A stretch of DNA of 17,603 nt, taken from sequence record MG766218.1; one strand, 5' to 3'. Of the stretch, positions 1 through 17,603 are shown one piece after another (position 1 is the first letter of the stretch; every line of letters begins with the position of its first letter). Both the position numbers and the translations under genes were made by a program. The notes under the pieces are model-generated. The model had not been told where the DNA came from, ran no database searches, and saw nothing but the letters and a program-made list of their open reading frames with translations. The DNA is from Staphylococcus phage vB_SauP_phiAGO1.3.

Positions 1-317
1 AAATATAATTAGGGAAAAAGTTAGTATAAATTTACACCTCCCCACCGTTTAAAATAAACGATTATAAAAATCAAAACTTATAAATTCACTTATCATTTCT
101 TTACTAAACGATTATAAAAATCAAAACTTATAAATTCACTTATCATTTCTTTACTAAACGATTATACAAATCAAAACTTATAAATTCACTTATCATTTCT
201 AAACTAAACTTATAAAAAACTGTTCAACAACTTAACTAACTTATCTAACCTATTACATATTCATCAAATACAAAATTTATACATCTATTGACTTTTATCA
301 AAAGTTATGATTGGAAC
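1..317. repeat. Left inverted terminal repeat (ITR) of a linear protein-primed phage genome
   Basis: The reverse complement of the last ~266 nt of the window matches nt 1-317. Positions 1-105 are identical except for one mismatch at position 9 (left ..ATAATTAGGG vs right ..ATAAATAGGG). The inner ~110 bp is about 85% identical with a 1-bp indel. Homology ends at ..GTTATGATTGGAAC (317). Confidence 0.85.
56..205. repeat. Tandem 50-bp direct repeats inside the left ITR: two identical copies and one variant copy
   Basis: The unit AAACGATTATAAAAATCAAAACTTATAAATTCACTTATCATTTCTTTACT occurs at 56-105 and 106-155. Copy 156-205 is a variant (ATACAAA; ..TTTCTAAACT). Confidence 0.9.
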
Positions 318-1025: not shown

Positions 1026-1394
1026 ATGACAAACGTAAAAGATATTTTATCAAGACACCAAAAAACATTAGCGAGATTTGAATTTGAGGAAAAAGAAAGA
1101 GAATTTATTAAACTATCAGAATTAGTAGAAAAATACGGTATGAAAAAAGAGTATATCGTTAGAGCATTATTCACAAATAAAGAATCAAAATTCGGTGAAC
1201 AAGGTGTTATCGTCACTGACGACTATAACGTAAACTTACCTAATCACTTAACAGAGTTAATTAAAGAAATGAGAGCAGACGAGGACATTGTTAACATTAT
1301 CAATGCTGGTGAAGTGCAATTTACAATTTATGAATATGAAAACAAAAAAGGTCAAAAAGGTTACTCAATCAACTTTGGTCAAGTATCATTTTAA
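1026..1394 (+). CDS. Early protein (122 aa), possibly an abundant DNA-binding/SSB-like protein. The function is inferred only from size, position and the terminator that follows.
   Basis: ATG at 1026 preceded by AGAGGAG (1011-1017). Followed directly by an intrinsic terminator, which suggests a short, highly expressed transcript, as for phi29 p5/p6. There is no motif-level proof. Confidence 0.6.
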   Translation: MTNVKDILSRHQKTLARFEFEEKEREFIKLSELVEKYGMKKEYIVRALFTNKESKFGEQGVIVTDDYNVNLPNHLTELIKEMRADEDIVNIINAGEVQFTIYEYENKKGQKGYSINFGQVSF

Positions 1395-1403
1395 TACAAT
1401 TTC

Positions 1404-1431
1404 ATAGGGGATACTTATCCCCTATTTTTTA
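1404..1431 (+). terminator. Rho-independent terminator inside the early operon
   Basis: Stem ATAGGGGAT (1404-1412) pairs with ATCCCCTAT (1417-1425) around loop ACTT, followed by TTTTTT. Confidence 0.7.
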
Positions 1432-1443
1432 TGAGGTGCTTAA

Positions 1444-1620
1444 ATGGAACGTAAATACAAAACGGTATTATTATATTGTGATGAGATTAAAGGACATTTA
1501 CCACATCAAATTGCAATGTTTGAAGATTTATATGACGCTAAAGTTGTATACTCGTATTATGAATACAACCTGTTCACTAAAAAATATGCGTATATCATAG
1601 AATACATTAAGGAGATATAA
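1444..1620 (+). CDS. Small early ORF (58 aa), absent from the supplied ORF track
   Basis: ATG at 1444 preceded by GAGGTG (6-nt spacer). Translation begins MERKYKTVLLYCDEIKGHLPHQIAMFEDLYDAKVVYSYYEYNLFTKKYAYIIEYIKEI. Stop TAA at 1618-1620. Its last codons (AAGGAGAT) supply the RBS of the next gene. Confidence 0.5.
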   Translation: MERKYKTVLLYCDEIKGHLPHQIAMFEDLYDAKVVYSYYEYNLFTKKYAYIIEYIKEI

Positions 1621-3994: not shown

Positions 3995-6280
3995 ATGGGA
4001 TTACTTGAGTGTATGAAATATCATAAAAATCAACGCAAAATGATATTGTATTGGGATATTGAAACATTATCATACAATAAAATAAACGGACGTAATAAAC
4101 CAACGCTATATAAAAACGTAACGTATTCTGTTGCGATTGGTTGGTTTAATGGTTACGAAATTGATGTTGAAGTATTCCCTAGTTTTGAAGCTTTTTATGA
4201 TGATTTTTACAAGTATGTTAACCGTCGTGATACAATCACGAAATCAAAAACAGATATTATTATGATTGCACATAACTGTAATAAGTACGACAATCATTTT
4301 TTACTTAAAGATACCATGCGTTACTTTGATAATATCACACGTGAAAATATATATTTAAAATCAGCAGAAGAAAATGAACACACGTTGAAAATGCAAGAAG
4401 CTACTATCTTAGCTAAAAATCAAAATGTGATTTTAGAAAAACGTGTAAAATCCTCTATTAATTTAGACTTAACGATGTTTTTAAATGGTTTTAAATTTAA
4501 TATTATAGATAACTTTATGAAAACTAATACATCAATAGCAACATTAGGTAAGAAATTACTTGACGGAGGTTATTTAACAGAAAACCAACTTAAAACAGAT
4601 TTTAATTATACAATTTTTGATAAAGATAATGATATGTCAGATAGTGAAGCCTATGACTATGCTGTAAAGTGTTTCGCTAAACTCACACCTGAACAACTTA
4701 CATACATTCATAATGACGTGATTATATTAGGTATGTGTCATATTCATTATAGTGATATATTCCCAAATTTTGACTATAACAAATTAACATTCTCATTGAA
4801 TATTATGGAATCTTACTTGAATAATGAGATGACACGTTTTCAGTTACTCAATCAATATCAAGATATTAAAATATCTTACACACATTACCAATTCCATGAT
4901 ATGAATTTTTATGACTATATCAAATCGTTTTACCGTGGTGGTTTAAATATGTATAACACCAAATATATCAATAAACTTATTGATGAGCCATGTTTTTCTA
5001 TTGACATCAATTCGAGTTATCCTTATGTGATGTATCATGAGAAAATTCCGACATGGTTATACTTTTACGAACACTATTCAGAACCAACATTAATCCCTAC
5101 TTTTTTAGATGATGATAATTATTTTTCATTATATAAGATTGATAAAGAGGTATTTAACGATGAGGTATTAATTAAAATCAAATCACGTGTATTACGTCAG
5201 ATGATTGTTAAATACTACAATAATGATAACGATTACGTTAATATCAACACAAACACATTAAGAATGATACAAGACATTACGGGTATTGATTGCACACATA
5301 TACGTGTTAATTCGTTTGTGGTATATGAATGTGAATACTTCCACGCACGAGATATTATATTTCAAAACTATTTTATTAAAACACAAGGTAAATTAAAGAA
5401 TAAAATCAATATGACAACACCTTACGACTATCACATTACAGATGAAATTAACGAACACCCCTACTCAAATGAAGAAGTTATGTTATCAAAAGTCGTTTTA
5501 AATGGTTTATATGGTATACCTGCTTTACGTTCACACTTTAATTTATTTCGTTTAGATGAAAACAATGAATTGTATAATATCATTAACGGTTACAAAAACA
5601 CTGAACGTAATATATTATTCTCTACATTTGTCACATCACGTTCATTGTATAACTTATTGGTACCTTTCCAATACTTAACGGAAAGTGAAATTGATGACAA
5701 TTTTATTTATTGCGATACTGATAGTTTGTATATGAAATCCGTTGTTAAACCCTTATTGAACCCCAGTTTATTCGACCCGATAGCCTTAGGTAAATGGGAT
5801 ATTGAAAACGAACAGATAGATAAGATGTTTGTACTGAATCATAAAAAATATGCATATGAAGTGAATGGAAAGATTAAAATTGCCTCTGCTGGTATACCGA
5901 AAAACGCCTTTGATACAAGCGTCGATTTTGAAACCTTTGTACGTGAACAATTCTTTGACGGTGCCATAATTGAAAACAATAAAAGTATATATAATGAGCA
6001 AGGTACAATATCGATATATCCGTCTAAAACTGAAATTGTATGTGGTAATGTATATGATGAATATTTTACTGATGAACTTAATATGAAACGTGAATTTATA
6101 TTAAAAGACGCTAGAGAAAATTTTGACCATAGTCAATTTGATGATATTCTTTATATTGAAAGTGACATTGGTTCATTTTCACTTAACGACTTATTTCCAT
6201 TTGTACGTTCAGTACATAATAAATCAAATTTAAATATATTAAAAATGCAACACGATGACATCAAAAAAGGCAACTGTTAA
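3995..6280 (+). CDS. Protein-primed family-B DNA polymerase
   Basis: Exo I YWDIETLS (DIE at 4055-4063), Exo II AHNCNKYDNHF, Exo III YIHNDVIIL, motif A DINSSYPYVM, motif B KVVLNGLYG, motif C YCDTDS (5708-5725) and KxY NHKKYAY are all present. The ORF is open from GTG 3983. ATG 3995 is preferred because AGGTG (3981-3985) lies 9 nt upstream. Confidence 0.93.
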   Translation: MGLLECMKYHKNQRKMILYWDIETLSYNKINGRNKPTLYKNVTYSVAIGWFNGYEIDVEVFPSFEAFYDDFYKYVNRRDTITKSKTDIIMIAHNCNKYDNHFLLKDTMRYFDNITRENIYLKSAEENEHTLKMQEATILAKNQNVILEKRVKSSINLDLTMFLNGFKFNIIDNFMKTNTSIATLGKKLLDGGYLTENQLKTDFNYTIFDKDNDMSDSEAYDYAVKCFAKLTPEQLTYIHNDVIILGMCHIHYSDIFPNFDYNKLTFSLNIMESYLNNEMTRFQLLNQYQDIKISYTHYQFHDMNFYDYIKSFYRGGLNMYNTKYINKLIDEPCFSIDINSSYPYVMYHEKIPTWLYFYEHYSEPTLIPTFLDDDNYFSLYKIDKEVFNDEVLIKIKSRVLRQMIVKYYNNDNDYVNINTNTLRMIQDITGIDCTHIRVNSFVVYECEYFHARDIIFQNYFIKTQGKLKNKINMTTPYDYHITDEINEHPYSNEEVMLSKVVLNGLYGIPALRSHFNLFRLDENNELYNIINGYKNTERNILFSTFVTSRSLYNLLVPFQYLTESEIDDNFIYCDTDSLYMKSVVKPLLNPSLFDPIALGKWDIENEQIDKMFVLNHKKYAYEVNGKIKIASAGIPKNAFDTSVDFETFVREQFFDGAIIENNKSIYNEQGTISIYPSKTEIVCGNVYDEYFTDELNMKREFILKDARENFDHSQFDDILYIESDIGSFSLNDLFPFVRSVHNKSNLNILKMQHDDIKKGNC

Positions 6281-6300
6281 ATAACAGTCGCCTTTTTCTT
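6263..6300. terminator. Bidirectional intrinsic terminator between the convergent early (+) and late (-) operons
   Basis: Stem GGCAACTGTT (6269-6278) pairs with AACAGTCGCC (6283-6292) with one mismatch around loop AAAT. An A-tract (6263-6268) and a T-tract (6293-6300) flank it. The polymerase stop codon lies in the loop. Confidence 0.65.
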
Positions 6301-6393
6301 TTGAGATAACTTGAAAAATGTGTACGAAAATTGATTATGTTTTGTATTTTATTTACTAGCATTACTAGCATGAGTTCATTATAGCATACATCT

Positions 6394-7824
6394 TTATGCA
6401 ATACCACTGAAGAATACAATATTATCACCTGCATTTTCAGGTACACCATTAATGAGTGTATATAACACAACACGTGACGGAGCAACGTAAGGTGGAACAT
6501 TATAGTTTGCGACTAAGAATGAACCATCATCAAACACTGCTACTACAACACCTGTATGACCAATTCCATATATACTTGCTTGTAAGTATGGTGGTTTACT
6601 AGAGAATCCATATCCAACGGTAGGATTATGTGTGGTTTTCGCTCCTAATTTTTTATAAACATACCACACACGTTGACCGTTTGTTACTTGTCCATCATCA
6701 GTTGGTTGTCTTTTTCCATGTAGTTGTGACATATACGCCCATGTTAATTCTGTACACTGTCCTGCATTACCCGTTTGAGGGAATATGTTACCTGGTTTGT
6801 ATAAATATTCTTTTTTGAATAAAGGTACACCAATTGCTTTTTTATATTTTTCTGGTAATTGGTCATACGTCCAGTTACCACCTATCACACGACCACTTTT
6901 TCCGTTTGGTTTCACAGATTTACCACTAATCGCATTATGCTCACCATCGTCATCAGTAGGGTTTGAACTTCCACCATCTATTTGCACACTATCAATGAGC
7001 TTTTTTAATGAGTCGAGTAGTCCAATTGTCATTTTAATATGATACGTGTTGTTAAATGTTTTTTGTAATGTAAAATAATCATTACTAAAAAATTTATCAC
7101 TACCAATACTATGCACGTCCCATTGTAATGCGTCTTGAACTTTTTTTAATAATTCTTGCATGGCTTGTTTTGCTAAAGCAAGTAATGAGCTACCTCCACT
7201 ATCAGAACCACTGTCAGATGAATCACTAGGTGAACCACCTTTTCCATCTATTTTACCACCCCACGCAAGAATAGTATTAGCACCATCTAAAAACGGATTA
7301 CCGTAATTTTGTACCTTGTTATATGACGCATTCAAACCTGGTGGATAATATGCCGCCCAAGTAGCCGCCGCTGTTAATGGAATATATGCACGTCCAATTG
7401 TACCTGCTTTCATATTTTTAGCAAAATCTGCATTACCTTTTCTTTGTACGTCTTGTGGTACAAAATGCACTGGATTACCGTAATCATACCAAGACGGTTG
7501 TCCAGCTTGTTTTGATTGTGATACTAATTTTCTTGCTATGAATTTAGCGTCTGTTAAATAATCACCACGTGCAGACGTATGATTTAACCAACCTAAACCA
7601 GCACTATAACCCTCATTTTTTTCATATACGGCAAAAAGAGTAGGTGATACACCTATCTCTTTTACTGCTTTTAATACTTGTCTGATTTTACTTTCATTAC
7701 CACCTAGCCATACATTAAAGCGCCCATATCCTTTTACTTTAGGGACTAACTGGTCTATCGTTAAACCGAAATCATCATTAATATACGAATGTGTAAATTT
7801 ATCTATCTTCTCTTGGTCGTTCAT
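6394..7824 (-). CDS. Tail-associated peptidoglycan hydrolase: lysozyme-like N-domain, Ser/Gly-rich linker, C-terminal CHAP peptidase (analogue of phi29 gp13)
   Basis: A CHAP Cys/His signature is present (NAGQCTELTWAY ... GIGHTGVVVAV). The linker is GGSPSDSSDSGSDSGGSS. The N-terminal region resembles the lysozyme-like domain of phi29 gp13. It is the last gene of the late operon, after the holin. The ORF is open from GTG 7833. ATG 7824 (MNDQEK) is preferred, with a weak AAAGAG RBS. Confidence 0.8.
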   Translation of the reverse strand: MNDQEKIDKFTHSYINDDFGLTIDQLVPKVKGYGRFNVWLGGNESKIRQVLKAVKEIGVSPTLFAVYEKNEGYSAGLGWLNHTSARGDYLTDAKFIARKLVSQSKQAGQPSWYDYGNPVHFVPQDVQRKGNADFAKNMKAGTIGRAYIPLTAAATWAAYYPPGLNASYNKVQNYGNPFLDGANTILAWGGKIDGKGGSPSDSSDSGSDSGGSSLLALAKQAMQELLKKVQDALQWDVHSIGSDKFFSNDYFTLQKTFNNTYHIKMTIGLLDSLKKLIDSVQIDGGSSNPTDDDGEHNAISGKSVKPNGKSGRVIGGNWTYDQLPEKYKKAIGVPLFKKEYLYKPGNIFPQTGNAGQCTELTWAYMSQLHGKRQPTDDGQVTNGQRVWYVYKKLGAKTTHNPTVGYGFSSKPPYLQASIYGIGHTGVVVAVFDDGSFLVANYNVPPYVAPSRVVLYTLINGVPENAGDNIVFFSGIA

Positions 7825-8221
7825 TATTATCACTCTTTTCAGAATCGTTTTTAATTACTCTTAATTTATCTTTAATTTGTTCTGGCACTAACACGTCCAT
7901 TTCTGCACAATTTTCTACGATAGATAAGCCCTCATTAGCGATATAATAGAAAATCGTAATCATGAGTAAGCCACCTTTTAATTGTAAAATCTGGTCAATG
8001 ATATTTGCTAAAATGATAATACAGAATATCAATAATTTTTTAGCAAAACCTTTCATTGATTTTTTTGACCATAAGTTATTATTTTTAATGGCTTTAGCAA
8101 AACCAGTAATAATATCAACAATCATTAAAACAAATAAAAAATATAGTAATTTTAAATCACCTGCATATACGAACATATGAAAAGCTTCTGTATCGGTGAA
8201 TCTTAATTTTACCTCATTCAT
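7799..8221 (-). CDS. Holin (phi29 gp14 / phage_holin_4_1-like)
   Basis: Hydrophobic TM segments (LLYFLFVLMIVDIITGF; LLIFCIIILANII; LLMITIFYYIA) precede a charged C-terminus. The pattern VD..G.....SI.EN is shared with phi29 gp14. ATG at 8221 is preceded by AGAGGGTG with 6-nt spacing. The track start at GTG 8230 is less likely. Confidence 0.7.
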   Translation of the reverse strand: MNEVKLRFTDTEAFHMFVYAGDLKLLYFLFVLMIVDIITGFAKAIKNNNLWSKKSMKGFAKKLLIFCIIILANIIDQILQLKGGLLMITIFYYIANEGLSIVENCAEMDVLVPEQIKDKLRVIKNDSEKSDNNERPREDR

Positions 8222-8222
8222 T

Positions 8223-9986
8223 TTATACACCCTCTCTAAATTTATTATTTAATGGATTTTGTAACATTGGATTACCTGAACCGTCATTATGCCAAAATCT
8301 CACACCCGATTCTAAAATTGCTTTTAATTGCTCCATTAACATGGGGTCAATGTCACGTATAGTATACGTACCTGTACATTTTAAATAGTTGCAAACGGTC
8401 ATACTGTTAATTGGTTCAATAAATGTGTTATAGTCATTCACTTCAAAACCAAACAACATATAATATTTTTGTAAAAATGTAATTTCTTTTGGTGATGGGA
8501 CACTAATCTTCATAGTTAAACCATTAATACTATTTGCGATTTGAAATGCGTTTCCCATTTCTGATTCAGTCACTGAGGGCGGTTGTAAGGCTAAATCTTT
8601 ATATTCTGCTTGTTGTTGTTTGTAGAAATTATATTCTTCATTAAATTTACCAAATAAAGCCGTTGGACTTAAATTACTTGCCACACTTACAGCGTCATAA
8701 AAACGTGATTTTGGGTCACTACCATTTAATACATTATCTATACGACTTGTGATTAATTGACTTTCTGCATTACGCTGTCTATTGGCTTGTTGTGATTGCC
8801 CTAAAATTCCGTTATTAATTAATATAGGGACTTGCGCAAAACTATTAAATGTTATATTTGTATTTAAGAATGAACCTGTATCAATCAATATTTCTTTATT
8901 TTTAGCGAGTATTGGTCTGTCGTTTTCAGCACTGTTATAATCTACTGGATATACTCGAACTTCATTATGATAACCAATAATTGATTTTGTACGTAACTTA
9001 ACACCAGTTTTTTCTGATATTTTACCAGCGTCGAGTAACATTGTATTCCCATTCCAATCATAAAATTCAATCGTCATGTATTCATTACGTATCATATGTT
9101 TAAATTCATCTTTTTTAGATAACATCATCTCTTGAAGTTTTTCAAAACTTAATGATAAATTGTTTAAACTCCATTCTTTTGATTTACCACCTTGTTTTAA
9201 TGTTTTTAAACCTTTAATACTTTCACTTGATTTTACATCTTCTAAATCTTTTTCATTAATAAAGTCTTTAGGTAACATTTGAACCTTTTGAAAGTTTTGT
9301 GTAATCCACGGATAAGCACTCATTTTATCCATAAAATTAATAAAATCCCCGTATTCCATGACGTATAAGTTAACTGGTGATGTGATATTGTCATATATCG
9401 TACCCTTAGATGTATCCAAATTAGGTTCTTTTTTCGTTCCAAATTTCTTTGATAAATCCGCACTTGATTGAAATAATACTAAATTTTCCAAATACTGTTG
9501 CATTTGGTTATACACATAATTTTTGTTCGATACTTTTAATACATCATCATTGTTACGTAACATTGGTAACATATAGTTATACGTGCGTTTAGATAAATGT
9601 TGGCGTTCAATATTAACATTTGAGAGTTGCTCTAATACATTCCCTTGTGTATACGTCATAATAGTATCAATAACAAAATATATTTTAACCACAACGTCAT
9701 TAACGTATTCGATTTGGTTCACAAATGCGTAATAACGTCTGTCCTCAAAATCTGATAAAAAGGTCATATAGTTAATCCCTTGTGCGTCATGCCACTGAAT
9801 ATCAACATTGATTTCCATTCTATCACGTATAAAATTATACGGTTGTTTTGAATAGTCTAACGATTTAAAATGACGACCGTTTAAAAAATAATCATCACGT
9901 TCTTGATTACTATTAAAATGAATAGTATTTTGATAGTCTGTAAACGGTGTGTTATAGAAAAACTTAAAATTTGTTAATTTTCTCAT
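8223..9986 (-). CDS. Tail knob / distal tube protein (phi29 gp9-like)
   Basis: About 587 aa. The N-terminal FFYNTPFTDYQNTIHFNSNQERDDYF resembles phi29 gp9 VPFSNDYKNTRWFTSSSNQYNWF. ATG at 9986 (MRKL) is preferred because the GGAGGT of the RBS (5-nt spacer) lies inside the first four codons of the longer track ORF starting at 9998. Confidence 0.75.
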   Translation of the reverse strand: MRKLTNFKFFYNTPFTDYQNTIHFNSNQERDDYFLNGRHFKSLDYSKQPYNFIRDRMEINVDIQWHDAQGINYMTFLSDFEDRRYYAFVNQIEYVNDVVVKIYFVIDTIMTYTQGNVLEQLSNVNIERQHLSKRTYNYMLPMLRNNDDVLKVSNKNYVYNQMQQYLENLVLFQSSADLSKKFGTKKEPNLDTSKGTIYDNITSPVNLYVMEYGDFINFMDKMSAYPWITQNFQKVQMLPKDFINEKDLEDVKSSESIKGLKTLKQGGKSKEWSLNNLSLSFEKLQEMMLSKKDEFKHMIRNEYMTIEFYDWNGNTMLLDAGKISEKTGVKLRTKSIIGYHNEVRVYPVDYNSAENDRPILAKNKEILIDTGSFLNTNITFNSFAQVPILINNGILGQSQQANRQRNAESQLITSRIDNVLNGSDPKSRFYDAVSVASNLSPTALFGKFNEEYNFYKQQQAEYKDLALQPPSVTESEMGNAFQIANSINGLTMKISVPSPKEITFLQKYYMLFGFEVNDYNTFIEPINSMTVCNYLKCTGTYTIRDIDPMLMEQLKAILESGVRFWHNDGSGNPMLQNPLNNKFREGV

Positions 9987-10000
9987 TTTTACCTCCATAA

Positions 10001-10040
10001 AAATAGTCGTATAAATAATTTATACGACTATTATATCATT
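10001..10040 (-). promoter_or_regulatory. Composite element on the - strand: a TG-extended -10 (TGATATAAT) followed immediately by a hairpin terminator and T-tract
   Basis: TGATATAAT on the - strand is the reverse complement of 10030-10038. A near-perfect palindrome AGTCGTATAAAT/ATTTATACGACT (10005-10029) is followed on the - strand by ATTTTTAT. The tail-knob RBS comes next. Confidence 0.5.
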
Positions 10041-10041
10041 T

Positions 10042-10938
10042 TTATTCAATGATTTGTGTATCTATTACAAAACGTTTATCTCCATTTGTTAAGTCACTAT
10101 CTTGATAAGATGATGTAACAAAATGTAATTCGTTTTTAAAATTTAAATACATTCTTGTATTTATCATTTTTGTATCAATGGCACATTGTGTATAGTGATG
10201 TGTTGTTTTTAAATTTGCATTAATACTACCTAATTTAATATCTCCGTTTTTCTTAATTCCTTTTAATACCCCTTTTATTTGTATGATACGAATATTATTA
10301 ATTGTAATAATACGGTATTGCGGAGAAGGATAACCACCATTACTATCGCTTACGGTAATACCACTTTCTAATGTTATATCTTGCCAACCTGTATCATTAA
10401 CAGTTGTTTTTGAAGCTTCAATTTTTTTATAAATTTCTAAATTGTTATTAGATACAGTTGAAGCTAAATTTTCTATACTTTGTTTATTTTGTCCAGTAGC
10501 TTCTTTTGTAGCGATAATATCTTGTTTGTTTTTTTCAATATCTGATTCATTTTCTTTATTTTTATCATCTAATAAATGAATAGCTGATTCATGATTATTT
10601 AATGTATTTGAAAATTCTGATTGAACATCAGATAAATTTTTTATTTTTTTATCTTGTTGTATATTATCCTCTTTAATATGAATAATATCTGTAGCGTTTT
10701 GAGATATATTGCTTTTATTTGTAGCAATGTCACTTTTGTTTTTACTAATTTCATTCATATTTGTATTAATTTTTTCTAATAATTCATCTTTAAAAGTTAA
10801 CTTATAATAATCCTCATCACGTTTTATATAAATGTTGTCATCTTTAGTTGTTATTAAGTCATTTGCTTCAACTAAATTGTCGTTTAATTTATCAACAGAA
10901 TCAATGTTTCTTAAACTTCTTACAATTCTATCAGCCAT
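10042..10938 (-). CDS. Coiled-coil fibre-like structural protein (298 aa), possibly a head fibre
   Basis: The N-terminal two thirds are coiled-coil-like and rich in charged residues and Asn/Ser, ending in a globular C-terminal domain. RBS AAGAGGTG then TAAAA then ATG. Its position among the tail genes leaves the assignment to head or tail unclear. Confidence 0.55.
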   Translation of the reverse strand: MADRIVRSLRNIDSVDKLNDNLVEANDLITTKDDNIYIKRDEDYYKLTFKDELLEKINTNMNEISKNKSDIATNKSNISQNATDIIHIKEDNIQQDKKIKNLSDVQSEFSNTLNNHESAIHLLDDKNKENESDIEKNKQDIIATKEATGQNKQSIENLASTVSNNNLEIYKKIEASKTTVNDTGWQDITLESGITVSDSNGGYPSPQYRIITINNIRIIQIKGVLKGIKKNGDIKLGSINANLKTTHHYTQCAIDTKMINTRMYLNFKNELHFVTSSYQDSDLTNGDKRFVIDTQIIE

Positions 10939-10999
10939 TTTTACACCTCTTATTTATATCGTTTCCAACTAAACTCAAAGAAAAATCCTAAAATACCCA

Positions 11000-11749: not shown

Positions 11750-11766
11750 TTATATCACTCCTATTT

Positions 11767-17291: not shown

Positions 17292-17321
17292 ATTATATCA
17301 TAGAATATTTAAATAAGTAAA
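17292..17321 (-). promoter_or_regulatory. Right-end late/structural operon promoter on the - strand: TTTACT, 18-bp spacer, TG-extended -10 TGATATAAT
   Basis: The -10 is the reverse complement of 17292-17300 (ATTATATCA) and the -35 the reverse complement of 17316-17321 (AGTAAA). It lies about 25 nt upstream of the GGAGGTG RBS of the first - strand gene. Confidence 0.6.
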
Positions 17322-17337
17322 TTAATTTTATTATTTT

Positions 17338-17603
17338 GTTCAAATCATAACTTTGAATAAAAGTCAATAGATACCTAAATTTTGTATTTGATGAATATGT
17401 TATAGGTTTGATAAGTTGGTAAAGTTGGTGAACAGTTTTTATAAGTTTAGTTTAGAAATGATAAGTGAATTTATAAGTTTTGATTTGTATAATCGTTTAG
17501 TAAAGAAATGATAAGTGAATTTATAAGTTTTGATTTTTATAATCGTTTATTTTAAACGGTGGGGAGGTGTAAATTTATACTAACTTTTTCCCTATTTATA
17601 TTT
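17338..17603. repeat. Right inverted terminal repeat (ITR)
   Basis: This is the reverse complement of the left end. It is 51 bp shorter because it carries one fewer 50-bp repeat copy and has a 1-bp indel. Confidence 0.85.
17449..17548. repeat. Tandem 50-bp direct repeats inside the right ITR: two copies, one perfect and one variant
   Basis: These are reverse complements of the left-end unit. Only one perfect copy plus the variant copy are present, so the ITRs differ in length. Confidence 0.9.

Follow-up and report, generated by a model that had tools for sequence, protein, structure and literature searches.

What happens to late transcription in the gap that separates the head-fibre-like gene from the tail-knob gene of Staphylococcus phage vB_SauP_phiAGO1.3 (sequence record MG766218.1)? 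The window analysed here is the complete genome of this P68-like Staphylococcus aureus podophage (17,603 bp; Rountreeviridae, Rosenblumvirus), and over a tested 700 bp it is 98.9% identical to phage 351Saur083PP and 90% identical to P68. Early genes run rightward on the + strand and finish with the DNA polymerase gene (end 6280), and late genes run leftward on the - strand from 17263 to 6394. The gap measures 55 nt; the remaining late-gene junctions measure at most 17 nt, save one 61-nt gap. It is occupied in its entirety by a module in which a TG-extended -10 promoter motif, TGATATAAT, runs into a perfect hairpin followed by a T-run. We conclude that this module probably terminates late RNA born upstream and, through a promoter nested in the same bases, starts new RNA from within the 5′ arm of the hairpin, forming the boundary of two late transcription units.

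An earlier sequence-only reading of this DNA had placed on the - strand an extended -10, then a perfect palindrome, a T-run and the tail-knob ribosome-binding site (RBS), and all of these are present in that order (Table 1). The palindrome, there given as 12 bp, is indeed perfect but longer: the stem comprises 14 bp as RNA and, as DNA, 15+15 around one central base, giving a 31-bp palindrome longer than any other perfect inverted repeat in the window. The -10 and the hairpin overlap by 3 nt, the AAT of the -10 being the first three bases of the hairpin. At the other end, the first two T of the U-tract double as the last two stem bases, and the hairpin lies 5 nt from the tail-knob RBS. The TAA stop of the co-oriented head-fibre-like gene stands 9 nt before the hairpin. 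An alternative in-frame ATG in the list of open reading frames (ORFs), at 9998, overlaps the tail-knob RBS. The predicted transcription start, A10023, is position 10 within the 14-nt 5′ arm, and the 5′ untranslated region counted from it is 37 nt long and contains GGAGG.

The predicted fold depends on where the RNA begins. Read-through RNA folds at -14.2 kcal/mol, against -3.2 ± 1.9 kcal/mol for shuffled sequences (z = -5.9; none of 200 shuffles was as good). RNA beginning at A10023 is unstructured (0 kcal/mol), and RNA beginning at G10025 reaches -3.5 kcal/mol through a residual 7-bp A/U stem that ends 5 nt before the U-run. Because the predicted start lies within the 5′ arm, promoter-born RNA should be unable to form the terminator, in agreement with what had been proposed from the sequence; and since only upstream-born RNA has both arms and U5, the terminator would be selective for the origin of the transcript. 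No Rfam family matches the module locus at E <= 1.

The mechanism we propose is as follows. The host sigmaA RNA polymerase would read the 55-nt junction in two ways. Transcripts from the right end of the genome would pass the capsid, collar, tail-fibre, endolysin and head-fibre genes and then both hairpin arms and U5, at which a fraction of the polymerases arriving from upstream would terminate, with RNA 3′ ends expected around 10001-9996 on the - strand. A -35-less, TG-extended promoter would meanwhile start RNA at about A10023, within the 5′ arm; this RNA would carry the 3′ arm only, lack the terminator fold and continue into the tail-knob, holin and tail-spike genes. Expression of the tail-tip and lysis block would then be set by the internal promoter plus read-through, and not by the head-gene promoter alone.

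Motif counts do not carry this proposal. TGATATAAT occurs three times in the window against 1.25 expected, a number reached in 23 of 200 shuffles, and the form of the motif with a free N, TGNTATAAT, occurs five times against 3.5 expected. The motif alone is not significant; what goes beyond chance is the composite and its conservation. Since the counts are near chance, we dropped motif frequency as an argument for a promoter and used conservation instead. A whole-window terminator scan was likewise uninformative, with 7 sites against 4.6 ± 2.1 expected.

The 63-nt element is found in 69 phage records and the 5′ region of the tail-knob gene in 72, so a few phages lack the element. We aligned 15 Rosenblumvirus sequences and 11 distinct Andhravirus-type sequences. 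Across the Rosenblumvirus set the TG, TATAAT and all 28 stem positions are unchanged; variation is confined to N (A/T), the base at the centre of the loop, an insertion in the loop, and indels within or directly after the T-run, which ranges from 5 to 6 T among relatives. The flanks of the element have 33-47% variable columns in the same alignment. The S. epidermidis phage Andhra and its relatives (Andhravirus; tail-knob protein 69% identical) have the layout of the window built on a different stem, TG[A/G]TATAAT-AGACACGU-GAAA-GCGUGUCU-AUUUUU (-14.5 kcal/mol). Three of 36 module columns vary in the Andhravirus-type alignment (N, one loop base and T-run length), and 62-65% of the columns in its upstream coding flank do. 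At three loci (L035, L044 and L104), a G-to-A change in the loop converts a closing U-G pair into U-A. These alignments show the anatomy of the putative module to be under purifying selection.

More distant relatives were reached by a metagenome scan with a tail-knob protein alignment, which added 65 loci, and 106 loci were examined overall. At 54 of them, all of the staphylococcal type, TGNTATAAT runs directly into a hairpin and T-run, the nested layout of the window. Eighteen C1-like loci, that of Streptococcus phage C1 among them, are tandem, TGNTATAAT there following a GC-rich hairpin, of which many different stem sequences occur, and its T-run (L020, L072-L079, L083, L084, L087, L089, L094, L096, L100, L102 and L103). 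Nine loci have TGNTATAAT without a hairpin (one of these, L082, was reassigned by hand from 'overlapped' to 'promoter only'), five have a terminator only, and 20 have neither, the tail-knob gene there mostly abutting or overlapping its neighbour.

Within the nested class, TG and TATAAT are invariant, N may be A, T, G or C, and apart from the stem sequence only N, the loop and the length of the T-run vary. The class nonetheless contains five unrelated stems (AGTCGTATAAA, AGACACG, AAGTACATACA, AGGTACATAC and AGGTACATACAT), in the Rosenblumvirus, Andhravirus, L056, L105 and L049/L092 lineages. All five open with the AAT of TATAAT, lead into a U-run and fold at -14 to -18 kcal/mol, so the register of hairpin on -10 is shown, in these alignments, to be conserved across independent stems. 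The predicted +1 falls within the 5′ arm in every stem lineage, in Andhra on the last paired G of the arm. Together with the weak fold of RNA from G10025, this means that the proposed escape from the terminator tolerates an error of a few nucleotides in the start site. The suggestion that transcripts from upstream would meet a terminator here thus gains from a hairpin and U-run 9 nt past the stop whose pairing is kept in five stems, and the suggestion that the extended -10 is a putative promoter gains from an invariant TG/TATAAT with a free N and from the same motif standing before the tail-knob gene in other layouts.

In tandem and promoter-only relatives, TGNTATAAT lies 20-35 nt before the tail-knob RBS. 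A stretch of 150 nt would hold TGNTATAAT by chance with a probability of about 0.02 (from 5 matches per 35 kb); the motif is present in about three-quarters of the loci, against this chance of about 2%, and in many independent lineages, so its presence is not due to chance. In six of the nine promoter-only loci (L015/L093, L081, L082, L085 and L086) the upstream gene is divergent and calls for no terminator, and the tail-knob/holin/tail-spike block stands alone behind its own TGNTATAAT. We conclude from this comparison that a host-type extended -10 promoter before the tail-knob/holin/lysin block is old and conserved, that a terminator goes with it wherever the upstream gene is co-oriented, and that the staphylococcal phages hold a compacted, nested form of this promoter/terminator junction. 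The distribution of layouts shows the nested junction to be evolutionarily equivalent to a conventional terminator-then-promoter junction, and so the tail-knob/holin/tail-spike block would be a conserved separate transcription unit.

Some junctions have been rearranged. L015 (IMG/VR contig 3300022535_000009; 668-4255) and L093 represent a 70%-related phage in which the head-gene block is inverted relative to the tail-knob/holin/CHAP block. The inverted block of L015 comprises the capsid gene and two small upstream genes, and its breakpoint lies exactly at the position of the module; the resulting 53-nt divergent region has TGTTATAAT toward the tail-knob gene and TGATATACT/TGTTATACT-like elements toward the head genes. 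In L037 (2340-2495; also L036, L043, L054 and L058) an ORF encoding 100 coiled-coil-like amino acids is followed by TGCTATAAT and the first 10 nt of an L105-type 5′ arm, and about 140 nt of coding-like sequence stands in L037 in place of the 3′ arm, T-run and RBS. This replacement stretch differs between L037 and L054 at third positions, has no in-frame start and ends in a TAATG that overlaps the tail-knob start; a frameshifted or fused C-terminal extension is one possible reading. A candidate second -10 past the hairpin, in the manner of C1, was rejected: the window has none, and Andhra has only TATAAG overlapping the RBS region.

Several observations weigh against the mechanism that we propose. 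The promoter has no -35: the best placed candidate, CACAAA at 17-nt spacing, matches at 2 of 6 positions, and the module promoter is not among the 60 best -35/-10 pairs of a whole-window promoter scan. A third copy of the 9-mer, at 755-763 on the + strand, forms the spacer between an RBS and its ATG (AAAGGAG-TGATATAAT-A-ATG), and a near-identical spacer, GGAGTGATATAA, precedes the endolysin ATG at 11750-11766 (-), so the 9-mer is not always a promoter in this genome; the copy at 755-763 is probably incidental. A consensus terminator scan called the hairpin on the + strand only, which we attribute to the scan's handling of the tail after a maximal 14-bp stem. With only 3 G-C pairs among its 14, a short U-tract of 5 U and a stop codon 9 nt upstream, the hairpin would probably terminate only in part, and by our reckoning a ribosome terminating 9 nt upstream may hinder its folding. 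No 5′- or 3′-end mapping or RNA-seq was found in the literature for Rosenblumvirus (P68, 44AHJD) or Andhravirus, and the P68 structure paper is silent on transcription (PMC6795507).

The relatives supply further contrary cases. Enterococcus Rountreeviridae have no intergenic gap before the tail-knob gene and are uninformative on the module; L043, L054 and L058 also have no gap there, and L036/L037 keep TGCTATAAT and the start of the 5′ arm, with about 100 nt of coding-like sequence in place of the 3′ arm. In 44AHJD (L017 3288-3400, corresponding to about 9990-10940 of the window) a deletion runs from just inside the head-fibre gene to the T-run, removing the head-fibre gene, the -10 and the hairpin and joining a 23-codon ORF stub to the retained tail-knob RBS. 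Among the matches listed, 44AHJD and vB_SauP-V4SA02 align only on the tail-knob side of the junction. Phages of the 44AHJD type are viable without the module, which is therefore dispensable, and their tail-knob unit can live on read-through; the loss of both halves together is also what a coupled pair predicts.

One alternative, which we regard as unlikely, is that the locus is a terminator or an RNA-stabilizing 3′ hairpin and nothing else, TGATATAAT being no working promoter but kept for the A-tract that its A/T bases form to pair with the U-tract, and the downstream genes being reached by read-through. GenBank annotates the hairpin solely as a terminator (NC_055906 labels it 'putative terminator, -8.20', and MT926124 lists a terminator feature within the matched stretch), and the terminator half of the module, already annotated by others, is hence not new. 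The missing -35, the second use of TGATATAAT as an RBS-to-ATG spacer and the expression of the tail-knob block in 44AHJD with no promoter at the junction would all suit a terminator alone. An A-tract, however, needs no invariant TG two bases 5′ of TATAAT with a free N between, which is the exact signature of an extended -10; the motif stands before the tail-knob gene with no overlapping hairpin at the 18 tandem and 9 promoter-only loci; and at the 6 loci with a divergent upstream gene it must be a promoter.

A second alternative, very unlikely in our judgement, accepts the promoter but takes the palindrome (-9 to +22) as an operator bound by a dimeric phage or host regulator, the T-run being incidental. 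A 31-bp perfect palindrome over the -10 and the start is classic operator geometry, and phi29 relatives have DNA-binding regulators at late promoters (PMC11476376). Yet the palindrome is replaced wholesale between lineages with complementarity, stem energy and U-run kept, and the loop change from G to A restores a Watson-Crick closing pair. Matches to the half-site are near shuffle level (window, 6 with 4.5 expected; Andhra, 5 with 2.6 expected) and none lies at the other late promoters, and the C1-like hairpin lies upstream of the promoter, where blocking is impossible. Least probable of all is a hairpin for processing or translation control, an RNase III or stabilizer site that splits the RNA or tunes tail-knob translation without termination: the long, perfect, A/U-rich 14-bp stem could plausibly be cut by RNase III, the U-tract is short and the RBS is 5 nt away, but the U-run right after the stem is kept in all five stem lineages, relatives have canonical GC-rich terminators at the same position, and the conserved -10 is left unexplained. 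A processing or translation role is possible in addition to the nested terminator and promoter, as the two are not exclusive.

The nested terminator and promoter that we favour raise the matter of purpose. The module may give lower or separately timed expression of the low-copy tail-tip proteins and holin relative to the capsid, and the independence of this block in phages of divergent layout fits a separately controlled unit. An upstream polymerase would cross the embedded promoter before terminating, so the nested layout, unlike the tandem one, gives no shield against promoter occlusion, and the two events must compete within about 40 bp.

The genes on either side of the junction were assigned from PHROG scans and annotated relatives. 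On its 5′ side lie capsid, collars, tail fibre, endolysin and the head-fibre-like gene; the order capsid, endolysin, fibre-like gene read earlier from the sequence agrees with these scans, with the relatives and with the roles known from P68. The 'fibre-like gene' of that reading can be named more closely as the counterpart of the P68 head fibre gp14: its product matches the PHROG tail-protein families phrog_9604 and phrog_17481 and is a homologue of P68 ORF14/gp14. The structure of the P68 virion assigns gp14 to the head fibre, gp13 to the tail knob and gp11 to the tail spike (PMC6795507).

Table 1. Features of the module, its neighbouring genes and the other predicted late-strand promoters, in window coordinates (ORF, open reading frame; RBS, ribosome-binding site).
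Feature	Position	Strand	Basis and remarks
Head-fibre-like gene, 298 aa	10042..10938	-	ORF list; last gene of the upstream late unit; TAA 10044..10042
Extended -10 TGATATAAT	10038..10030	-	TG 10038-10037, TATAAT 10035..10030
Hairpin	10032..10002	-	5′ arm AATAGTCGTATAAA 10032..10019, loop TTA 10018..10016, 3′ arm TTTATACGACTATT 10015..10002
Predicted transcription start, A	10023	-	Sigma-70/sigmaA spacing rule, 7 nt past the -10
U-tract TTTTT, then A and T	10003..9999 (A, T to 9997)	-	Sequence
RBS GGAGG and ATG of tail-knob gene	9996..9992; ATG 9986..9984	-	Sequence; start as annotated in P68 and EBHT
Tail knob (gp13)	8223..9986	-	ORF list, PHROG, P68/EBHT annotation, PMC6795507
Holin (gp12)	7799..8230	-	ORF list, PHROG, P68/EBHT annotation
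CHAP tail spike (gp11)	6394..7833	-	ORF list, PHROG, P68/EBHT annotation, PMC6795507
Downstream unit attributed to the internal promoter	6394..9986	-	Tail knob, holin and CHAP tail spike
Right-end late promoter	17292..17321	-	TGATATAAT 17300..17292; TTTACT 18 nt upstream
Small-RNA promoter TGCTATAAT	6386..6378	-	Third conserved TGNTATAAT of the late strand; N = C, G, A or T in relatives; discriminator varies

The right-end operon promoter does share the 9-mer of the module, as had been noted, and there it has TTTACT upstream (Table 1) and GGAGGT and the first late ATG (17263) downstream. This promoter is conserved in P68 and EBHT, and Andhra has TGTTATAAT at the equivalent place. With the internal module and the small-RNA promoter described below, the late strand would carry three predicted TGNTATAAT promoters, a map that can be tested. 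In Andhra (L016 232-268, +) TGTTATAAT is followed 6 nt on by a hairpin, AAGCAA-AAAT-TTGCTT, then by ACATTTTT and the first late gene; this hairpin is possibly a 5′ stabilizer or attenuator of the main late transcript, and the right-end promoter of the window has no hairpin of this kind. The inverted terminal regions (window 1-240 and 17380-17603) contain a tandem unit of about 60 nt (AAACGATTATAAAAATCAAAACTTATAAATTCACTTATCATTTCT...), in 3 copies on the left and 2 on the right. The PSK paper (Rosenblumvirus) predicted promoters, by a MEME search, only in terminal repeats and lists two other terminators.

A further copy of TGTTATAAT lies antisense within the tail-knob gene, at 8933-8941 (+) of the window, 8234-8242 of L002 and 8593-8601 (-) of L016. 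Its place in the gene is almost unchanged among the window, P68 and Andhra, and EBHT has no such copy; it may only mirror a run of conserved codons, or it may act as a weak antisense promoter directed at the palindrome.

The third late-strand promoter belongs to a predicted non-coding RNA unit of about 109 nt at 6386..6262 (-), in the gap where the CHAP tail-spike gene (stop 6394) and the DNA polymerase gene (stop 6280) converge. The RNA is predicted to start at about 6371 and to begin with a hairpin, UGCUAGU-AAU-GCUAGUA, whose loop varies and in which one pair covaries; next comes a single-stranded A-rich tract, AAAACAUAAUC, that is invariant, and the unit ends in a bidirectional terminator (6297..6264) whose stems covary between lineages. 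It was found at 45 Rosenblumvirus and Andhravirus-type loci; L037, L049 and L056 have longer, differently structured versions, and L015 has none. The unit is not coding, since reading in L014 and Andhra meets stop codons after 4-7 codons. No Rfam family matches it, and a search for a phage target complementary to the A-rich tract found none. RNAalifold supports the 5′ hairpin alone, as the two genera's terminators do not align properly. Packaging would be a role worth testing, prohead RNA having been reported so far only in phi29-like Bacillus phages (PMC11476376).

Two other intergenic sites resemble parts of the module. Andhra has a second compact terminator/promoter module, in tandem order, between its encapsidation and DNA polymerase genes (L016 13611..13566, -): a hairpin, AAGCAATGTGTAAA-GTT-TTTACATATTGCTT, is followed by TTTTTA and then TGATATAAT, with a -35, TTTACA, at 17-nt spacing within the 3′ arm. 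The gap at this junction in the window is only 3 nt. In the early operon of the window, between ORFs 1026..1394 and 1444..1620, a terminator-like hairpin at 1404-1431 (+), ATAGGGGATA-CT-TATCCCCTAT and then TTTTTT, stands just before an RBS; it is T2 in the supplement of the PSK paper, and the hairpin that Andhra has at the corresponding junction is a different, GC-rich one. We considered and rejected a second nested module at 1404-1425: the TACAAT 3 nt upstream and the TAAAAT that Andhra has there both lack a TG, and we judged them to be AT-rich chance.

If the nested module works as proposed, it predicts separate control of the tail-knob, holin and tail-spike genes as one unit, which bears on lysis timing, on phage engineering and on the choice of sites for insert expression; podophages of this type, 17-18 kb in size, serve as therapeutic anti-staphylococcal phages. 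The locus would be a natural example of a terminator that acts only on upstream-born transcripts, with tandem, nested and promoter-only layouts side by side in its relatives, and the module could find use in Gram-positive synthetic biology as an insulator part of very small size.

Both a terminator and a TG-extended -10 are textbook parts, and junctions in which a terminator precedes a promoter are ordinary; the variant feature here is the nesting, and we know of no named family with this geometry of -10 and stem. Lambda sib/tI retroregulation, in which antitermination and read-through create an RNase III site at the 3′ end, comes nearest in concept. The window resembles that system in that the fate of an RNA would be set by its promoter of origin, through the hairpin that can form, and differs from it in placing the start within the stem and in making the outcome termination or continuation.

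The closest counterpart at the same gene boundary is the C1-like tandem junction, which also has TGNTATAAT and a terminator hairpin with T-run after a co-oriented gene, and presumably the same job of ending one late transcript and starting the next. There the order is hairpin, T-run and -10, the elements abut and the start lies past the terminator, so that the terminator is wholly upstream as in conventional junctions; in the window the -10 comes first and the predicted start falls within the 5′ arm. Unlike in the C1-like tandem, the immunity of the new RNA would depend on its start position, and an upstream polymerase would cross the promoter before terminating. As a member of the TG-extended -10 class, the window has a perfect TGNTATAAT with a free N at a suitable distance from the RBS; Andhra and the C1-like phages have a perfect TRTG-like context (TATG, TGTG), the window a partial one (AATG). 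It departs from an ordinary extended -10 in that the initial transcribed region, counted from a start that is predicted only, doubles as the 3′ half of a terminator.

Phage phi29 offers a likeness of strategy: it too is a small protein-primed podophage that relies on the host polymerase and tunes long operons with internal promoters and a Rho-independent terminator, its late map comprising promoter A3, the weak internal promoters B1 and B2 and an internal terminator in gene 4 (PMC11476376). The differences are that the review describes no overlap of promoter and terminator, that A3 needs the activator p4 (PMC11476376) and that there is no sequence relation to the module.

Recycling termination suggests a more speculative use of the nesting. 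After intrinsic release, polymerase may remain bound to DNA and initiate again from whichever promoter is nearest, up- or downstream, as shown in vitro for the E. coli enzyme (PMC11347151). The module could in principle act as a 'transcript splitter', in which polymerase releases its RNA at the U-tract, stays about 25 bp from the -10, rebinds sigma and restarts, although we think this improbable. If true, it would yield two separately stable, translatable messages with little transcription flux lost, the register of the hairpin at AAT would have been selected for polymerase hand-over, and origin-selective terminators might be a general design rule for very small genomes. Compared with the recycling system, in which the data come from E. 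coli and not from staphylococci, the window has its promoter only about 25 bp upstream of the release site.

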